Under the pieces are notes generated by a model that ran no database searches, had not been told where the DNA came from, and was given only the letters and a program-made list of their open reading frames with translations. From contig JALTLO010000011.1 in the NCBI GenBank assembly GCA_027001995.1, forward strand, positions 391-28,079: 27,689 nucleotides of DNA. The letters run 5' to 3'. The position numbers and the translations under genes are program-made. Origin of the DNA: Planctomycetota bacterium (GTDB taxonomy: Bacteria > Planctomycetota > GCA-002687715 > DRQF01). Positions 2,662 to 9,251 of the stretch are shown piece after piece (the first letter of the stretch is position 1; every line of letters starts with the position of its first letter).

Positions 2662-5600
2662 CTATTGAACATTCTTGACGTGAACCGTGACAGCGCCACC
2701 TTCAAACATGACATCAACACCCGGAACGGCAAAGCCTTTTGGAATGAACCAGGCCCCCGGTGGATTAAAAGTAGAATAAGGCCCCGTGACGCTATAGTCC
2801 ATCAACACAATTCGGAGATATAGGTCGCCATTGCCATTGCCATAGGGAACGTAGTCCCAAGCCAAACCATATGGCGACGTACTGACCACACCCCCATTTG
2901 TAGTCGGCGCCATCGTTGGCGGGGATGTACTCTCGCCTAAGGCCGCGCCAAGGAGGCCAACTGCCGAATCTGGAGAAATCGCATTCTCTTTCGACGTAAT
3001 GGAAAGTTGCTGACTAAGACGCTCATACACGATGGGGATAGGCTTTTTTTCTGGATCAATGTAGTTGCCCAATTTGGGCACTTTTCCGCCACTCATGGGA
3101 CCAAAGTAGTCCAAACAGTCCATGCGTTGATGCAGAAAGAAGCTAAGAAAATCGAACGACGAGGCTGAGGTCTTTGGCTTGTATTCGTTGGGCATCATCG
3201 GAACTGAAAGAATCATCGGTATCTTCAATGTCACCCAATCCCCCGGTCGGCAAAATCGCATGACGATGTTGAAGTTTTCAAAGTCAATAGGGGTACCGGG
3301 GCCGACCGTTGGCGTGGGAGGTGTCACTTCGTAAACCTCACCTTGCTTGATGTTGAAGGGATAGAGGTTCGAAAAAAAGCTTTCGGCTGCATCATGGATG
3401 TGATGGCTATCAATAAAAGGCGCTGGGCCTCCACCTGGGACGACACGGGTCAGACGCATGAACGCTGCCACGCCGTTGGACCCGGAGCCATGGGTCCCGT
3501 TCTTATCCCAGAAAAGCATCTGGACGATTCCCCTGCCCGACTCTGTCGCACTCCGCGGAAGATCGGGAACCCGCCAAGCATTCCAATCAGCATCCCAGAT
3601 AGCGTCATCTAAGCCAGGAGTCCCAGTTTTACTGGCTCCCGTGTGCAGCATAGCTGGTTGATCGGTGGTGATGTATCCGGCGGGCCCACTCTGGCCTGGA
3701 GCTCCAAAACTTGTGACCGAACCGTCAGGATTCCAGAGCACGGCGTGATTCACGGCGTTGGCACCGGGGAGTCCTGTACGAAAGAACACCCGGTTCTTCA
3801 TGGGTACGTTGGTGAAGGAAGCACCAATCATCATATTGCGGGGATCTGTGTTGTATTCGATCTTCTGGAGCCGGTTGATAATGGCGGCGGCTTTTCGCGG
3901 GATTCCCCCGGATGCGACTTGGTGAGTATTGAAATTCACAAACTCAACGTCATCAACCGTGACTTGGCCATCATAAACTTCAAAACCCCATACGCCACCA
4001 TTGGGGTACAAGTTCATCTCTAAACTAATCGTAGATAGACTGCGACCAGCGAAGATTTCCTCCACATCCCAACCGCTCGCAATAGTTCCCGTGTTTAAGG
4101 ATTCGCCGATAACAAGGGAGTCCTTGAAAGTTGTGACGGCCTCACCGTCGCTGCCAGGAAAGGCAATGCTCGCGGCATAAAGTCCGACTTGGCAATCAGC
4201 CACTCTCAAGTTTTCCCAAAGCACATGGCCAAAGTTGCGACTAAAGATGCCGTACTGCCCACATTTGTACGCAGTGAAACCATCTACTTTGAACGCGTGG
4301 TTCGCAGCTTGCCCCCATTGGATGACCTGATGGTCACCAAAGTAGCCATGCTCAACGGAAGAGTGGGCCAAATTGCCGTCAAACGACCATTTTGGGGTTG
4401 GCGTGTTCGTATTAGGCGCTGGGAGAGCTGGGCCGAATGGTACGCCATTCGGGACGGGCAAAGGCTCGATTCCCTGGTAGGAAAACACTTCATGAGGATT
4501 TTCAATCCAGAAGCCCGTTCCTTCAGACCCTGCTGAGATGTTGTTGTCGACAGTGCAATCCAAGGTCTTAATCCAAAAAGTCGACGGTGCCTTGTCTCTC
4601 TTGTTCAAGGGCTTCAGAATAGTTTGCCCTGTTGGATCCTTCGGATCGACAACACCGTCCTCAGCTGCAAGTGTCGAAAGCCCCAAGTTGCCGGTGAGGG
4701 TACAACCTTTTTCAAGGCCGGATGCGAAATAGAATGCGTGGCCGTAGGTGTGGTAAGAGACATTGTCGGTGAGCTGAACATTTGTTGTGTGGTGCACAAC
4801 GATGGAGCGATTGTAATTGTGATGAAACGAAGAGGCCCCAATGCGCCCCACCGCCATAGCCCCGCCGTAGTGGAAATGGATGGGATACTCGCCTTCGACT
4901 AGGCGATTACCAAGACCAGTGAATTCGACCCAGTTGATGTTGACCCGAGGAGCTGGAGTTGCTGGAGTATGGTCGCTGGGCCCCGTACCGGGTGCTGGAT
5001 TCTCGCCGAACCGAATGAAACCGCCCCATTTCGTTGTGGCTGGCCCCACAGGCCCTTGAACCGTAATATTGCGGGAAAGAAGGCCCACTTCCGCTGCAAT
5101 TTTCATGGTTTTGGATGGACCTGGATCTAAGGTGCCGACAAAATGCTGAAAGGTCGCGGGGTGATCTATGCCATATTCCATCCTGGAAGGTGGAGGGAGG
5201 TTCGTGACCGATGTTATAGTGAATTCTTCGGCATCGTTGGTGTCGTAGTCTGTTGAAGCAACCACGACCTTGTCGCCCACAGCCCACCCAGGATTGCCAA
5301 CTACTCGTATTCTGTTTTGGCCGGTGAGAAGAGTTTCTGAGAGACGACCGTGTGGGAGCTGGCCATTCTGATTGCCCCACATCCTGATGTTTCCACCGGG
5401 ATCCACGAAGAGTCGCCCAGGGGTTGGTGGCGAGGTGGAGAAATCTTCTGCTAATCGAATGTTCAGATTTCCTGTGAAAGGGGAAAGGGACGTGCCAACC
5501 TTCAATTTTCCGCCATTTCGAACATAGAGGAGTTCAAAGCACCAGTCCTGAAGGTTGTTGTCAACAATCAGCGTGCCGTCAACAATAATCGCCTTGGCAC

Positions 5601-5918
5601 AATCGATAAGAAGATCGAGAGTCACAGTGTGGCCTGCTTGGATCAGGATGATGTCTGTGGATTGAAGGGGGACTGTTGTGGTGATGGGCGCCACAGGAGT
5701 CCATGTTGTTGCCGAACTCCAAAGCCCAGTTCCTGCAGATGTATGTGTTGGGGGTTCCGTTGGATAAGGACCCGGGCTTTGGCTAAACGCCGTTAAGGTT
5801 AGGCAGCAAAGGACCATAACTGAACTGCTGAACTGCTGAACTGCTGAACTGCTGAACTGCTGAACTGCTGAACTGCTGAACTGCTGAACTGCTGAACTAG
5901 GGCGACGAGGCTTCTCAT
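2662..5918 (-). CDS. G8-domain / CEMIP-TMEM2-like right-handed beta-helix protein, secreted; out of frame with its likely native start because of an 8-bp repeat tract
   Basis: G8 start (GLWSSATTW..VP..I.AGHTVTLD), AEVGLLSRNI, VEFTGLG..GEYPIHFH, HHNYNRSIVVHHT, GHAFYF are all typical of the G8/PbH1 family. ATG 5918 has a GGAAGGA RBS and reads MRSLVALV. The body frame resumes at ATG 5817 (MVLCCLTLTAFSQ). The listed TTG start at 6132 lies inside a duplicated segment and is not credible. Confidence 0.85.
5820..5898. repeat. Perfect 8-bp tandem repeat (TGAACTGC on +, AGTTCAGC on -), 9 full units plus a partial unit
   Basis: Read directly: TGAACTGC x9 at 5821-5892, then TGAACT to 5898. Confidence 0.98.
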
Positions 5919-6097
5919 TGGCTTTCCTTCCACAGATTCCAAATGAACGGAATTTGAGTGATTCTCGCGAATGAATCGGCTCAAAAGTGATAATTTGGCG
6001 CGCTTGGCTCTCTAACAGATTCCCACAATAAACTGTGGACGAACCATTGCGCAAGATATTTCTTGCAAAATAGTGCCTACATCTGTTCTTGCCCAGA

Positions 6098-6433
6098 ATC
6101 ATGGGGCCCCTTGCCCATTCTTGGCTTGCCAATCAATGGCCCGTTTTGTCAGATCGCTACCACTGAAGTAGCTCTCCTGCGTTGCTGATGGCGAAGTAGG
6201 GGGCTGTGGGGACACCCATGACAGCTTGGAAAGTGGCGAATGGCAGAGCCCGCCGAAATGGGCGTCAAGCCAGGATTGCAAACCACCACTGAAAGCACTT
6301 CAGCCGATGAGGAGTACTGGCAGCGATCCAGACGTCTATCGGGAAACGTGATCTCCCCCGTTCCCACGTCAGTGACACCATTGGCTAATTCAACCTTGGA
6401 GGTCATGCGAATCAAGGCAGGGCTGCGGGCCAC
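6098..6433 (-). pseudogene. Remnant paralog of the 394-2628 gene with an internal deletion
   Basis: 6098-6245 aligns to 335-482 (offset 5763) and 6238-6433 aligns to 1689-1884 (offset 4549), about 94% identity. The two parts join at a GAA(C/T)GGC microhomology, with 1214 bp missing, which causes a frameshift. Confidence 0.9.
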
Positions 6434-6541
6434 ATAGACATCAACACAGATAGACATGATCCCTCCCCACTTCGATCTCACCATCTGCGGCCAATCAAGA
6501 ATTCTCGCGTCAACAAGAACGGAACGAAGAACAGGAACAAA

Positions 6542-6646
6542 ATGGTCCGACGGGTTAAGAAAGTCGGTCGTCGTCGTCGAAGAAGAAGGAAGAAGCTGGC
6601 TATCGCCAACAAGGAACTGTGGAGAAGGCGTTCTTCGGGTACATAA
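6542..6646 (+). CDS. Candidate 34-aa Arg/Lys-rich peptide (below the ORF-track cutoff)
   Basis: MVRRVKKVGRRRRRRRKKLAIANKELWRRRSSGT*, with AGGA 5 nt before the ATG. It overlaps antisense ORFs, so it may be a shadow. Confidence 0.25.
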   Translation: MVRRVKKVGRRRRRRRKKLAIANKELWRRRSSGT

Positions 6647-6792
6647 CGGACGGTGACGCAACAAAGAGAGATTGCGCAACTCTGCCCATGATCGTTGTTG
6701 TAGCCAACCAACCCCAAAGTGGTTGATTCATGAGGCGATGCTGGCGTGCAATATCCTCAACAACATGTCGGCTGTAGGGCGACCAGATTCTG

Positions 6793-7035
6793 TCAAAATC
6801 GCGAGCTGAAATGGGCTGTTGGAGCTACTGCTCTTGTCTCAGTTTGCTCCGTACACCAGCGGACCAAACGTTCGCAGCGGAGACAGCGCCCACCAAGTCT
6901 TTCTTTAGCTATGCCTCCGTGCCATACTCTTTTGTCGGCCAAGGCCGAGAACTCGGACACCAAGTCCATCACCCCATCGTCACCAAGAAGTTCGTCGAGA
7001 TCGTCTCTCATTTGTTTGAAGACCACATCTGACAT
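6793..7035 (-). CDS. Small hypothetical protein (possibly the 5' part of a decayed gene), divergent from the retron
   Basis: MSDVVFKQMRDDLDELLGDDGVMDLVSEFSALADK... reads as natural amphipathic helices. The 3' half is less convincing and no family was recognised. Confidence 0.35.
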   Translation of the reverse strand: MSDVVFKQMRDDLDELLGDDGVMDLVSEFSALADKRVWHGGIAKERLGGRCLRCERLVRWCTEQTETRAVAPTAHFSSRF

Positions 7036-7040
7036 CAATC

Positions 7041-7201
7041 AAATTGACTGGGTGCTGAGGAGAACTCCTCAGAGGTCAATCAGGTTCATAGCTCGCCGAG
7101 TTCTAAGATGGGATTGTGTTCCTGACGCCAAGTATCGGTGTTATCCAAGGAAGAGCTATGAATCATTCACGACCTGCTCGTTAGGGCCACCCGATCCATT
7201 T
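7041..7201 (+). ncRNA. Putative retron msr-msd non-coding RNA
   Basis: Outer inverted repeat AAATTGACTGGGTG (7041-7054) / CACCCGATCCATTT (7188-7201): 11 Watson-Crick pairs plus 1 GU of 14. Perfect hairpin CTGAGGAG/CTCCTCAG (7055-7072). Long stem with perfect TTCATAGCTC/GAGCTATGAA (7085-7094/7153-7162), extendable by CAGGT/ACCTG (7081-7085/7172-7176). Ends 5 nt before the RT ATG. Confidence 0.6.
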
Positions 7202-7206
7202 TTCTT

Positions 7207-8091
7207 ATGTGGAAAATCAGACACAAGAAATCGCTTGCCGACTTAGACGGCATACTCAAAGAGACCGGTCTAAGTCAGACGAATTGGCGAACCGAAATAG
7301 AAGACCTGAAGGAGTCTTATCGAGCCGTCTACATCCCCAAGGGTTCATCGGGGTACCGTACCCTGACTGTCCCAGGCCCCCTGTTGATGGGAAAGCAACG
7401 AAGTCTGCTTCGCCTTCTGAACCAGACGCTCAAGGCCCCAAACTTCGTTACAGGGGGTGTTCAAGGGGGTTCCATCCGATCCCATGCCAGACCTCACCTA
7501 AGCCAACTTTGGGTGGCGACCTTCGACGTGTGCAACTTTTTCCGACAAATCCGACCGGCGATGATCGAAAGAGTTCTTCTGTCTCTTGGTTTCTCCGACC
7601 CGGTCATTGAAGCGATCATCCGGCTATCCTTCGTCAAAGACATTTTACCCCAAGGGGCAGCCACGAGCCCTTTCTTGGCGAACATAGCCTTCCTGCCGGT
7701 CGATCGGGTGTTGAGACGAATAGCCAAAAAACGAGAGTTGACTTATACCCGCTATCTGGACGATTTGGCATTTTCGGGCATGACTGACCTGCCTCAACTG
7801 AGGGGCCCCATCAGACATGAATGCTCTCGATTCGGTTTTCCTCTCCACGAAGAAAAAGAACGATTCATGAAAGCAGGAACGAGACAGGTCATCACCGGGC
7901 TGGTGGTCAACAAGAAGCTTCGCCCAACTCCTGAATTTTTTCGTCGCCTGCAGGAAGACATGAAAAACTGCCAGGAAGCCGAAGGCATCACTGTCACCCC
8001 TGTGCTCGCGGGCAGACTCGCCTTTCTCAAACAGTTTGAACCTAAGTTAGCGATGCAAATCAGAGAGGAATTTCAGACGTCTTTGCCGTAG
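7207..8091 (+). CDS. Retron-type reverse transcriptase (RNA-directed DNA polymerase), 294 aa, stand-alone
   Basis: RT motifs IPKGSSGYRTLTVP, FDVCNFF, LPQGAATSPFLAN, YTRYLDDLAFSG, GFPLHEEK. Retron hallmarks: region X SIRSHARPH (NAxxH variant), region Y QVITGLVVN (VTG variant), and thumb GRLAFLKQFEP. No maturase or endonuclease extension. Confidence 0.92.
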   Translation: MWKIRHKKSLADLDGILKETGLSQTNWRTEIEDLKESYRAVYIPKGSSGYRTLTVPGPLLMGKQRSLLRLLNQTLKAPNFVTGGVQGGSIRSHARPHLSQLWVATFDVCNFFRQIRPAMIERVLLSLGFSDPVIEAIIRLSFVKDILPQGAATSPFLANIAFLPVDRVLRRIAKKRELTYTRYLDDLAFSGMTDLPQLRGPIRHECSRFGFPLHEEKERFMKAGTRQVITGLVVNKKLRPTPEFFRRLQEDMKNCQEAEGITVTPVLAGRLAFLKQFEPKLAMQIREEFQTSLP

Positions 8092-9251
8092 ACCATCTGC
8101 GCATAGAGTGACCGGATTGTCTCCGCATAGTCCTTGAACTTGTGACGCTCTTTCACCAAGATTTTCCCAGCGTGGCCAACGTTCTCTTTGAGCTTGGGAT
8201 CGTTCATCAACTCCCGTGTCGCTTCGGCAAATTGCCGTGGCCAGGCACCGTCGCGCATGATCGCTCCGCCGATCTCTCGGATGTCCTGAGCTAAGCCCGT
8301 GGTGTGGTCAATAATGACCGGTAAGCCAATGGCCATGGCTTGGAGGACAATCTCTTGCTCAGGAAAATCACGGCTGTGGGCCCAGAGAACATGGAGACGG
8401 CCAAGCAAAGAACCGGGCTCCTGAGGTAAGGGCATTTTCACGACCTGCTCCCCGAGCCCCAGATCTGAAACCCATGGTTCCACATTGACCTCCTGGGGAT
8501 CGCCAATCAGGATCAATCTGGCCTTGGGGCAATGACCCAGAAAAATCCGAAAGGCTTCCAACATCTCTCGGACGGCTTCGCATTGCCCTTGAGGCACCTT
8601 CATACCGATATCAAAGACACCCGCACTCAATTCTTGAAAGTCAACCAAGGGAGCAGTGACGGCCGCTGCTGAATCAATGCCATGGCCAACAACCGAGGTG
8701 TACTTGAGTCGCCCGAATCGTTTCAGAGCACTCATCCGCTGGTCATGATCAAGAAAAGCAAAACGAGGACGAGGAGCAAAAAGCCAACCGGCTCCGTCCA
8801 AGGCCCGTCCCCAAATTCCCCGCCGAGTCTCTGGGAGAGTCTCCGCCAATACAGGTAAATTCGCCGAAGCAGAAGCCCCCAGAACTCCCAATGTCCGGGC
8901 ATGATCGCCAATCAAGTGAAGGACTTGAGGATTGTTATGCTGGATCAAAGAACGAAGGCGCAACAAGGCTCCCAAACGCTGCCCCAAGCCTTCCCGTTTA
9001 CCCTTCTCTACCTCCAAACTGACCACAGGAACGTTCTTGCCCTGAATTTTTTCAACTGCCTGGCCATACACCTCAATGCTAGCCACCGCTGCCTTGAGTT
9101 GCATACGACCAAACTGGCCAAGTAAGCGGACAAGTTGTTTATTGGCATAACTGGGCGCGGTGGAGTCTACCACATAGAGAACACGGATAGGTCTTCTAAG
9201 CCCCTGCTCTTGTTCTCGTTTTTCGATCTCTTGGATATTCAATTCAGTCAC
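8073..9251 (-). CDS. GT-B fold glycosyltransferase family 4-like protein (degenerate motifs)
   Basis: IRVLYVVD start, GHGID, ARLILIGD, LQAMAIGLPVI, and C-terminal ELMNDPKL...GHAG pattern. The GTG start overlaps the trkH stop. Confidence 0.75.
   Translation of the reverse strand: MTELNIQEIEKREQEQGLRRPIRVLYVVDSTAPSYANKQLVRLLGQFGRMQLKAAVASIEVYGQAVEKIQGKNVPVVSLEVEKGKREGLGQRLGALLRLRSLIQHNNPQVLHLIGDHARTLGVLGASASANLPVLAETLPETRRGIWGRALDGAGWLFAPRPRFAFLDHDQRMSALKRFGRLKYTSVVGHGIDSAAAVTAPLVDFQELSAGVFDIGMKVPQGQCEAVREMLEAFRIFLGHCPKARLILIGDPQEVNVEPWVSDLGLGEQVVKMPLPQEPGSLLGRLHVLWAHSRDFPEQEIVLQAMAIGLPVIIDHTTGLAQDIREIGGAIMRDGAWPRQFAEATRELMNDPKLKENVGHAGKILVKERHKFKDYAETIRSLYAQMVYGKDV

Follow-up and report, generated by a model that had tools for sequence, protein, structure and literature searches.

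Type VI retrons, represented by Retron-Vpa2 and Retron-Sen3, consist of a non-coding RNA (ncRNA), a small protein (SP) acting as toxin, a helix-turn-helix protein (HTH) acting as antitoxin, plus one reverse transcriptase (RT), as laid out in the accessible text of two preprints (10.1101/2025.10.22.683967, 10.64898/2026.04.27.721009). The available part of the first places the SP open reading frame (ORF) of Vpa2 within a structured "hybrid RNA", alongside the RT template (10.1101/2025.10.22.683967). The second, in its available part, describes that the toxin-antitoxin pair of Sen3 functions without the RT and ncRNA, and that type VI ncRNAs carry a stem-loop directly 5' of the 5' repeat (10.64898/2026.04.27.721009). 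Retrons that lack an effector are known already: the accessible literature describes effector-less clades (the Ec107/Eco5 branch and clade 11), and about 22% of the type VI entries are without an HTH. For Eco5, the accessible portions of two papers give a chromosomal location without linkage to prophages, and consider a trans effector or another mechanism (PMC7736814; PMC13712802). Here we analyse a stretch of 27,689 nt (the window) from the genome of a Planctomycetota bacterium (assembly GCA_027001995.1, contig JALTLO010000011.1), in which a first-pass annotation, made from the sequence alone, had described the gene at 7207-8091 as a stand-alone retron RT without an effector.

This locus (6930-8091, perhaps from 6866) is probably a minimal type VI-like retron that lost the SP-HTH pair and kept its RT and ncRNA. 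The novel finding is a type VI-like lineage that is without toxin and antitoxin, has orthologs in several genera, is under selection and comes with its RNA. Our literature search found no mention of such a toxin/antitoxin-free type VI-like case; the supplements of the two preprints may list such cases.

All coordinates are positions in the window, and G000 denotes the genome from which the window was taken. Retrons were found in three genera of one family, g1 (G000 and G008), g2 (G001 and G002) and g3 (G003 and G004), while the genera g4 and g5 (G005 and G006) lack this retron. The "seven orthologs" are the window RT, the protein P0002 and the RTs of five further family genomes; the "six family loci" are those of G000-G004 and G008.

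The reverse transcriptase and its relatives

The genome of the window contains a single copy of the RT:

7207..8091, + strand: retron RT, stand-alone, 294 aa, ATG start, without internal stop

This ORF is a genuine full-length retron RT, far beyond chance. The Pfam domain RVT_1 matches at E 7.6e-16 and is the sole domain found in the ORF, and the length is that of stand-alone retron RTs, so that the absence of a fused domain noted in the first-pass annotation is upheld. In total, 71 PADLOC RT models match, and the best 25 are all retron RTs, headed by RT_III-A (172.9 bits, 2.3e-51), RT_X (165.8 bits), Ec107-like (162.1 bits) and RT_VI (150.2 bits). The retron models reach E-values of 1e-31 to 1e-51, compared with 1e-8 (35 bits) for group II intron RTs and 1e-7 (31 bits) for Drt2. 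The NCBIfam model retron_St85_RT gives 154.9 bits, under its cutoff of 235. A profile of the seven orthologs matches the solved Ec86 RT over its full length (E 4.6e-41; profile 12-291 to chain 21-303), and the best twelve matches among solved structures are retron RTs only, with Ec86 first. Ec86 belongs to the type II-A retrons, and its effector is nucleoside deoxyribosyltransferase-like.

Translation of the intact 294-aa frame bears out the three motifs that had been reported for this protein: HARPH, YLDD and ITG. Region X reads S-I-R-S-H-A-R-P-H (with H93, A94 and H97), the catalytic motif is Y183-L-D185-D186, and region Y reads Q-V-I-T-G-L-V-V-N, of which T230 and G231 are invariant in the seven orthologs. 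The letters are thus as described, but the label "non-canonical" needs a qualification, as these motifs are ordinary lineage variants. Histidine replaces the asparagine of NAxxH in all seven orthologs. Among 25 related metagenomic RTs, six share this replacement and ten carry Y[L/V/I]DD. Only ITG is restricted to the window RT and P0002, with VTG in the other five orthologs and in all 25 relatives; it is a conservative change. In the accessible text of Mestre et al. 2020 (PMC7736814), the residue conserved best is H for NAxxH and G for VTG. The window RT keeps both, and HAxxH is the retained motif with a changed first residue. Across the seven orthologs (34-82% identity), 55 columns are invariant, including the YxDD aspartates, PQG and the H, A and H of region X. 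The frames of all seven are intact, and Y183, D185 and D186 are unchanged in each.

Trees were built from the orthologs and the RTs of fetched loci, labelled with PADLOC at E<=1e-90. The FastTree tree comprised 122 rows and the IQ-TREE tree (LG+C20+F+G4) 62 rows, both midpoint-rooted; support values are node or split supports as reported. The window RT and its orthologs score 150-221 bits, and their best PADLOC model alternates between III-A and X, compared with 304-850 bits for type-labelled RTs of the locus set, each on its best model. The model RT_Ec107-like gives the window RT 162 bits versus 380-462 in 12 labelled members, RT_III-A gives 173 bits versus 351-485 in seven, and RT_X gives 166 bits versus 317-363 in ten (nine distinct). 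Moreover, the neighbours include no phosphoribosyltransferase (PRTase), which type III-A has along with a winged-helix gene, and no upstream IHF-like/VHL protein, which type X has. Hence, the RT does not fall within the Ec107-like group, type III-A or type X. The RT_other/outgroup model reaches about 150 bits, in two pieces.

Both trees place the seven family RTs in one clade (support 98-99), within a group that is claimed by no type model. The IQ-TREE tree has a split with support 97 that sets 34 rows, the family and 27 others, apart from all labelled RTs; across it lie the Ec107-like, III-A, X, XIII, clade-11-like, II-A, I-C, XI and XII RTs. The upstream genes of the related loci indicate what this group is. 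In 24 of 29 related loci, the gene immediately upstream of the RT encodes a Cro/C1 HTH protein, and all seven of the HTH ORFs tested have PADLOC HTH_VI as best match (8.5e-18 to 3.5e-23), besides matching Pfam HTH_3. A gene for a helical SP-like protein of about 95 aa precedes the HTH gene in 19 of the 29 (tblastn). In contrast, neither gene was found at any of the six family loci: SP and HTH queries gave nothing there at E 1e-3, and the best E-value in the upstream regions was 0.075. The G000 genome had no SP-like match at E 1e-3 either. The earlier wording of an unclassified lineage is therefore right in that no PADLOC type fits, but too strong in view of the split that unites the family with HTH_VI-associated RTs. 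Its stated counter-case, a described type whose effector was simply lost, comes close to where the trees place the RT.

An HTH_VI search of nine family genomes returned generic XRE proteins only, and it was unspecific, since a control matched 13 of 14 genomes. The closest look-alike of a type VI HTH in G000 (C84:52437-52619, E 3e-8) was rejected as a generic 89-aa XRE protein without the C-terminal extension. It lies in a cluster (C84:50500-54400) with an ATPase-like ORF, a 371-aa ORF, the 89-aa XRE HTH, a 316-aa GTPase-like ORF and a 174-aa ORF, which resembles a defence island; these labels were read from translations alone.

Type VI-like relatives have a variable gene just downstream of the RT, which abuts or overlaps it in three loci. 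Such genes were seen in L041 (2172-2747), L027 (1973-2557), L107 (4925-5521), L058 (1922-2479), L076 (2081-2842), L020 (2472-3341), L024 (4866-5729) and L064 (2774-5674). Their kinds include an RNase T/DEDDh-like exonuclease, a PolB-like exonuclease, a ClpP-like protease, a PD-(D/E)XK nuclease, a DpnII-like restriction endonuclease, an Abi_C protein and a DrmD-like SNF2 helicase. They may be extra modules or defence-island neighbours.

A structured RNA upstream of the reverse transcriptase

The region upstream of the RT had been described as holding only micro-ORFs or decayed ORFs. The decayed ORFs are real (fragments paralogous to a LamG gene, and a transposase remnant that we take to be IS5-like), but a conserved structured ncRNA at about 6930-7206, between this debris and the RT, was overlooked. 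Its parts, and the element that precedes it, are the following:

6866..6929, + strand: conserved upstream element of 64 nt, possibly promoter or 5' leader of the retron transcript
6935..6948, + strand: stem-loop of 5 bp, UCGGC-CAAG-GCCGA, directly 5' of candidate a2; -7.9 kcal/mol when folded alone
6948..6958, + strand: candidate a2 inverted repeat (AGAACUCGG at 6948-6956), overlapping the invariant C(U/C)CGGAC at 6952-6958
6957..7095, + strand: inner msr/msd-like region, in which conserved blocks (CCCCAUCG, UGGGUGC) alternate with variable hairpins
7083..7164, + strand: long-range helix enclosing a1, with arms 7083-7094 (GGUUCAUAGCUC) and 7153-7164 (GAGCUAUGAAUC); its core is the 10-bp repeat I9
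7096..7104, + strand: candidate a1 inverted repeat CCGAGUUCU, a perfect 9-nt complement of a2 (repeat I14)
7105..7206, + strand: structured 3' tail and RT leader, with a hairpin 7124-7129/7137-7142 and the conserved block GCUCGUUAGGGCCACCC at 7175-7191

From about 6930 to the start codon, G000 and G008 align with a mean identity of 72%, in perfect blocks and with indels that are not multiples of three; their RTs share just 48% identity. The motif C(U/C)CGGAC is common to all six family loci, 255-354 nt upstream of the start codon. It is non-coding, because its reading frame varies among genera. Furthermore, no ORF upstream of the RT is conserved across genera at >=25 aa on the RT strand or >=40 aa on the opposite strand. 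The suggestion of a micro-peptide effector is therefore not supported, since neither strand of the upstream region holds a micro-ORF of these lengths that is kept across genera.

The helix with the best support is the long-range pairing of 7083-7094 with 7153-7164. In all four g1 and g3 loci, the 16 nt directly before a1 are paired to a segment whose start lies 47-52 nt past a1, and shuffled sequences do as well in only 1, 26, 1 and 0 of 1000 cases. The helix sequences differ between g1 and g3, and RNAalifold shows five pairs that changed on both sides. A metagenome run (X2) differs from window 6942-7282 at just two positions, both in predicted pairs: 7142 T>C turns G7124.U7142 into G-C, and 7163 T>C turns a helix-extending G.U into G-C.

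The inverted repeats a1 and a2, and with them the branching G, are candidate assignments. Shuffles match the a2/a1 pairing in 0 of 1000 cases in G000 and in 7 of 1000 in G008, and a1 is the best partner of a2 in both. An a1 or its equivalent lies 112-141 nt upstream of the ATG in G000, G008, G003 and G004, and the sequence CUC-N-CCGRG at a1 is kept in g1 and g3. The branching G would be G6955 or G6956. The stem-loop at 6935-6948 has a counterpart of 4-6 bp in G008, G003 and G004 and none in G001 or G002, so that it is present in four of the six family loci (g1 and g3), while long hairpins occur in all six. A variable hairpin such as CUGAGGAG-AA-CUCCUCAG at 7055-7072 keeps its position in G008 with a different sequence, and at the place equivalent to 7124-7142 G008 likewise has a hairpin of other sequence. 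Among the type VI-like relatives, L100 has AACTCGGACAC 186 nt upstream of its small-protein gene.

An alternative a1 just upstream of the ATG (CCGA...UUCUU) was rejected as it is not kept in G008, and the position of hairpin I7 (7034-7048/7075-7089) is not conserved there. Duplex searches over the whole region were unspecific for a1 and a2. A sigma-70 promoter scan of 6100-8300 gave no sites, and the same interval contains two terminator-like sites, no more than in shuffles.

The 64-nt element at 6866-6929 has a second copy in its own genome (C204:90939-91002, 92% over 64 nt, blastn), and its first ~25 nt (GTTCGCAGCGGnGACAGCGCC) are kept in G008. The copy on C204 comes after an asparagine-synthase-like gene, close to one end of this contig, which carries the ancestral upstream neighbours described below. 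The two copies form a direct repeat that may mark the breakpoints of an insertion that split the locus.

Neighbourhood, synteny and descent

Three features bound the retron in the window:

6100..6433, - strand: two LamG-gene paralog fragments; upstream boundary, outside the retron
6436..6860 (end approximate), + strand: frameshifted 3' transposase remnant; upstream boundary, outside the retron
8073..9251, - strand: GT4 glycosyltransferase (GT; Pfam); downstream boundary, not a retron partner

On the downstream side, the GT gene is convergent with the RT gene and overlaps its final 19 nt, which confirms that there is no room for a downstream partner. It is the last of a TrkA-TrkH-GT row. On the upstream side, 6133-6860 contains no intact genes. 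Its first part belongs to two pieces of a paralog of the LamG-domain gene found at 394-2628. Of these, 6100-6245 matches 337-482 with 96.6% identity, and 6238-6433 matches 1689-1884 with 92.3%. The transposase remnant has nucleotide matches of 66-82% to copies on 11 other G000 contigs, including C40, C149, C142, C30, C4, C86, C31, C100, C117 and C187. The copies on C40 and C149 are intact, with an open stretch of about 200 aa ending in ...EAMLACNILN...SVKI(T/A)S, and the fragment at 6436-6860 has the same ending. We take the transposase to be IS5-like from its motifs rather than from a family search. These decayed ORFs are rearrangement debris and not effectors.

Some further observations concern this debris. 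Several copies of the transposase lie at contig ends, which suggests that the assembly was broken by them. The LamG-paralog fragments lie between a G8/CEMIP gene and the insertion sequence (IS) remnant; further copies occur in G000 (also on C202, C123 and C58), and metagenome contigs carry LamG fragments in various contexts. The peptide SSAVQQF occurs four times at about 5799-5984, in the 5' part of the minus-strand ORF 2662-6132 (the TTG-started reading of G8/CEMIP), and a short ORF that overlaps this one in a different frame contains it too. The likely cause is a 21-nt tandem repeat located before the true G8/CEMIP start.

The RT is narrowly distributed. A collection of 5.8 billion proteins contained a single close relative, P0002 (82% identity), with the remainder at <=36%. 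Whole-genome searches found orthologs (36-49% identity) in five of eight other genomes of the family and in none of 14 genomes from other families of the order. Scans of metagenomes and genomes gave a best relative of 40%, except for L016, of which the ncRNA stretch is that of G001 in the alignment, barring one base at either end.

Within the family, the RT occupies a recurrent site. In G008 and G003, it is convergent to the same GT-TrkH-TrkA block as in the window. On the upstream side of the RT, G008, G003 and G004 have a small BamE-like gene, and thioesterase and RadC genes come next in G008 and G003. The ancestral upstream block of G000 is found on contig C204; the LamG and G8 genes, along with the IS remnant, part it from the RT. 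Hence, the proposed link to the adjacent surface genes does not stand: LamG and G8/CEMIP adjoin the retron in G000 only, beside the IS remnant; the upstream neighbour in G008, G003 and G004 is the BamE-like gene.

The other genera differ. In g2, the GT and BamE-like genes abut without an RT between them (G001), and the retron is found elsewhere, between M28 peptidase and GDSL-like genes. The interval from GT to thioesterase holds other genes in g4 and g5, including a DUF4388 gene, and the RT is absent. The DUF4388 gene adjoins the GT, in the usual interval of the RT, at L014 5852-6709 (G005) and L015 2791-3675 (G006). The g2-specific GDSL-like gene, for a 456-aa lipoprotein-like protein, lies 82 nt downstream of the RT on the same strand (L010 9306-10676 in G001; L009 4542-5915 in G002). 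Its product matches GDSL/SGNH weakly (E 0.0013); G000 contains no homolog of it, and PADLOC gives no match. It might be a lineage-specific partner. Because the flanks thus differ between genera, the sole constant unit is the ncRNA with the RT.

The RT tree has the form (g2,(g3,g1)), with 99-100 support for every genus. The ratio of nonsynonymous to synonymous substitution rates (dN/dS) is 0.158 for G001-G002 (dS 0.65) and 0.40 for G003-G004. Synteny, the genus-congruent RT tree and dN/dS therefore indicate vertical descent of a functional gene rather than a relic, and we argue that RT and ncRNA have been inherited vertically under purifying selection in one family of Planctomycetota. A mobile defence gene would not usually show fixed synteny, a congruent tree and purifying selection. 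The rapid divergence of the RT and its species-specific hairpins still fit a conflict setting.

Origin, possible function and comparison with known retrons

That this is a stand-alone retron RT without a cis-linked effector, as first annotated, is sustained by the lack of a fused domain, the rejection of its neighbours and the absence of SP and HTH from all six family loci. Two neighbours were tried as effectors and rejected. The GT occurs without an adjacent RT in G001, G005 and G006. The BamE-like protein has a signal or transmembrane anchor, stays by the thioesterase-RadC genes, and is unlinked from the RT in G000, G001 and G002; its gene co-occurs with the RT at genus level (in g1, g2 and g3, and not in g4 and g5), which may reflect kinship only.

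We infer that the family lost the SP-HTH module rather than never having had it. When the tree is rooted on the branch that leads to the other types, the HTH-bearing L060 and L028 fall outside the group formed by the family and a clade of 22 HTH rows, and parsimony favours a loss of SP and HTH for this reason. Moreover, an approximately unbiased (AU) test of the alternative that all HTH-bearing RTs form one clade excluding the family gave a delta lnL of 14.35 and a p-AU of 0.0255. Several observations count against our reading, however. Some concern its type VI affinity: the tree loci were chosen via two peptide patterns and did not include named reference RTs of types IV, V and VI, and RT_VI scores only 150 bits, under RT_III-A at 173. 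Others concern the RNA. Rfam gave no match at E<=1 in the entire window. The a2/a1 pairing is non-significant in the GC-rich G003 and G004 (165 and 141 of 1000 shuffles do as well), where it falls in the same place, and in g2 (249 and 106 of 1000); within g1 it shows no changes on both sides. The long-range helix was not recovered in g2 (659 and 524 of 1000 shuffles), where the RNA is longer, and it crosses the a2/a1 pairing, so that they are to be read as a pseudoknot or as alternative folds. We know of no studied retron in which a2/a1 is crossed in this way. The RT also diverges faster than its neighbours (48% versus 64-90% between G000 and G008), which fits relaxed constraint as well. The remaining points concern the loss itself: it rests on L060 and the long-branch L028, with node support of 84-94, and the group used in the AU test was named only after inspection of the tree.

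These last points leave some room for the view that the family is an ancestrally minimal sister of the type VI retrons, with SP and HTH gained on the other branch. In the IQ-TREE tree, the family (98) is sister to the 22-row HTH clade (98) and not within it, above the deeper nodes of 84-94. Of the five related loci without an HTH, two are cut at a contig edge, but L085, L117 and L162, all within the 34-row split, are truly without it. The accessible text of one preprint likewise gives about 22% of 158 type VI entries as HTH-less (10.64898/2026.04.27.721009). We nevertheless regard a minimal ancestor as unlikely in the light of the outer position of L060 and L028 and the AU test (p 0.0255), and because the FastTree tree places the family inside a group (96) with nine RTs, of which eight have an upstream HTH and the ninth, L102, lies at a contig edge.

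Two further explanations keep an effector or give up function. A short or fast-evolving peptide in the RNA, the GT, or the 456-aa GDSL-like gene of g2 could be an unrecognised cis effector. The type VI toxin ORF sits inside the structured RNA, according to the available text on Vpa2 (10.1101/2025.10.22.683967), and the window has ORFs of 73 aa at 6811-7032 (+) and 81 aa at 6793-7038 (-). The GT has a sub-threshold match to the GT4-conflict domain PF20706 (E 0.009, 15.4 bits versus a cutoff of 26), and the g2 gene is without a homolog in G000. Such an effector is nonetheless very improbable: no frame of the lengths given above is kept across genera and that of the invariant motif varies, SP and HTH queries were empty at the family loci, PADLOC was empty for both window ORFs, the BamE-like protein and the g2 GDSL-like protein, and the GT persists without a neighbouring RT in three genomes. 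That RT and RNA are an inactive relic, decaying after the loss of the toxin module, would agree with the fast divergence of the RT relative to flanking genes, the absent effector, and the lack of the element in two of five genera. It is hardly credible given the intact frames and invariant catalytic residues of all seven orthologs, the dN/dS of 0.158, the conserved RNA blocks, the helix that changed on both sides, the structure-preserving variants, and the retention of the unit after its relocation in g2.

If the locus is a type VI-like retron reduced to RT and ncRNA, its action may be pictured by analogy with studied retrons. RT and ncRNA would derive from a single transcript, and the RT would bind the folded RNA. 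The duplex of a2 (6948-6956) and a1 (7096-7104) would present the G of the invariant CUCGGAC, whose 2'-OH would prime synthesis, and the RNA just 5' of a1 (5' of 7096) would be copied into multicopy single-stranded DNA (msDNA). The competing helix 7083-7094/7153-7164 would sequester the first template bases and may gate priming. Such gating would recall the IR1-IR2 pairing that flanks the SP ORF in Sen3, as far as the available text describes it (10.64898/2026.04.27.721009).

The output cannot run via the cis-encoded toxin of the relatives. One candidate, to which we give somewhat less than an even chance, is that the RT-msDNA complex is read by an unlinked factor of the host or of a defence system. 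More doubtfully, the retron might have a toxin-free role, for instance if phage recombination proteins or nuclease-inhibitor proteins were decoyed by the msDNA, or if the retron served the host. We also put forward, as a speculation, that this is a domesticated retron: RT and ncRNA as a chromosomal, vertically inherited module that has shed SP-HTH and is selected across genera. If true, domestication implies an RT/msDNA activity that is independent of the toxin, possibly as a decoy or sponge against phage recombination or RecBCD-inhibiting proteins, or in host regulation. The accessible parts of the two preprints name RecBCD-inhibiting and phage recombination proteins as triggers of type VI relatives (10.64898/2026.04.27.721009, 10.1101/2025.10.22.683967).

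The role of orphan retrons has been a standing question since the 2020 classification. Among retron types, only for type VI has recent work shown the toxin-antitoxin pair to function independently of RT and ncRNA. The converse is seen here in nature: purifying selection keeps RT and ncRNA where the pair is missing, in two genera at an orthologous site and in a third at a new one. The own function of a retron RT and its msDNA thereby becomes testable with a 1.2-kb construct, and the compact 294-aa RT with its cognate RNA is a possible editing scaffold. If the RT proved inactive, or an unlinked effector were found, this would be merely another orphan retron.

Among known systems, the Ec86 (Eco1) RT is the closest solved structure by sequence, with the same domain order and size class, at the level of a remote homolog only. 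The Retron-Eco5 (Ec107) branch of clade 2 and clade 11 resemble the window in combining RT and ncRNA with no recurrent accessory gene, as far as the accessible text of their descriptions goes (PMC7736814; PMC13712802). The RT lineage is different, however, as the Ec107, III-A and clade-11-like RTs lie across the split with support 97.

The closest likeness is to type VI (Retron-Vpa2 and Retron-Sen3; RT clade 3 of Mestre et al. 2020). The window shares with it a compact stand-alone RT that groups with HTH_VI-associated RTs. Like Sen3 and Vpa2, it has an upstream structured RNA of several hundred nt, and candidate features of this RNA recall theirs: a small stem-loop just before the putative 5' repeat, a long hairpin in the interior whose centre varies, and long-range pairing in competition with local stems. 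Moreover, the SP-bearing relative L100 has AACTCGGACAC upstream of its SP gene. Unlike type VI, the window lineage is without SP and Cro/C1 HTH at all six loci, and its RNA abuts the RT directly. It also differs in having HAxxH and YLDD motifs and an RT_VI score of only 150 bits, and in being inherited vertically at a fixed chromosomal site instead of being patchy.

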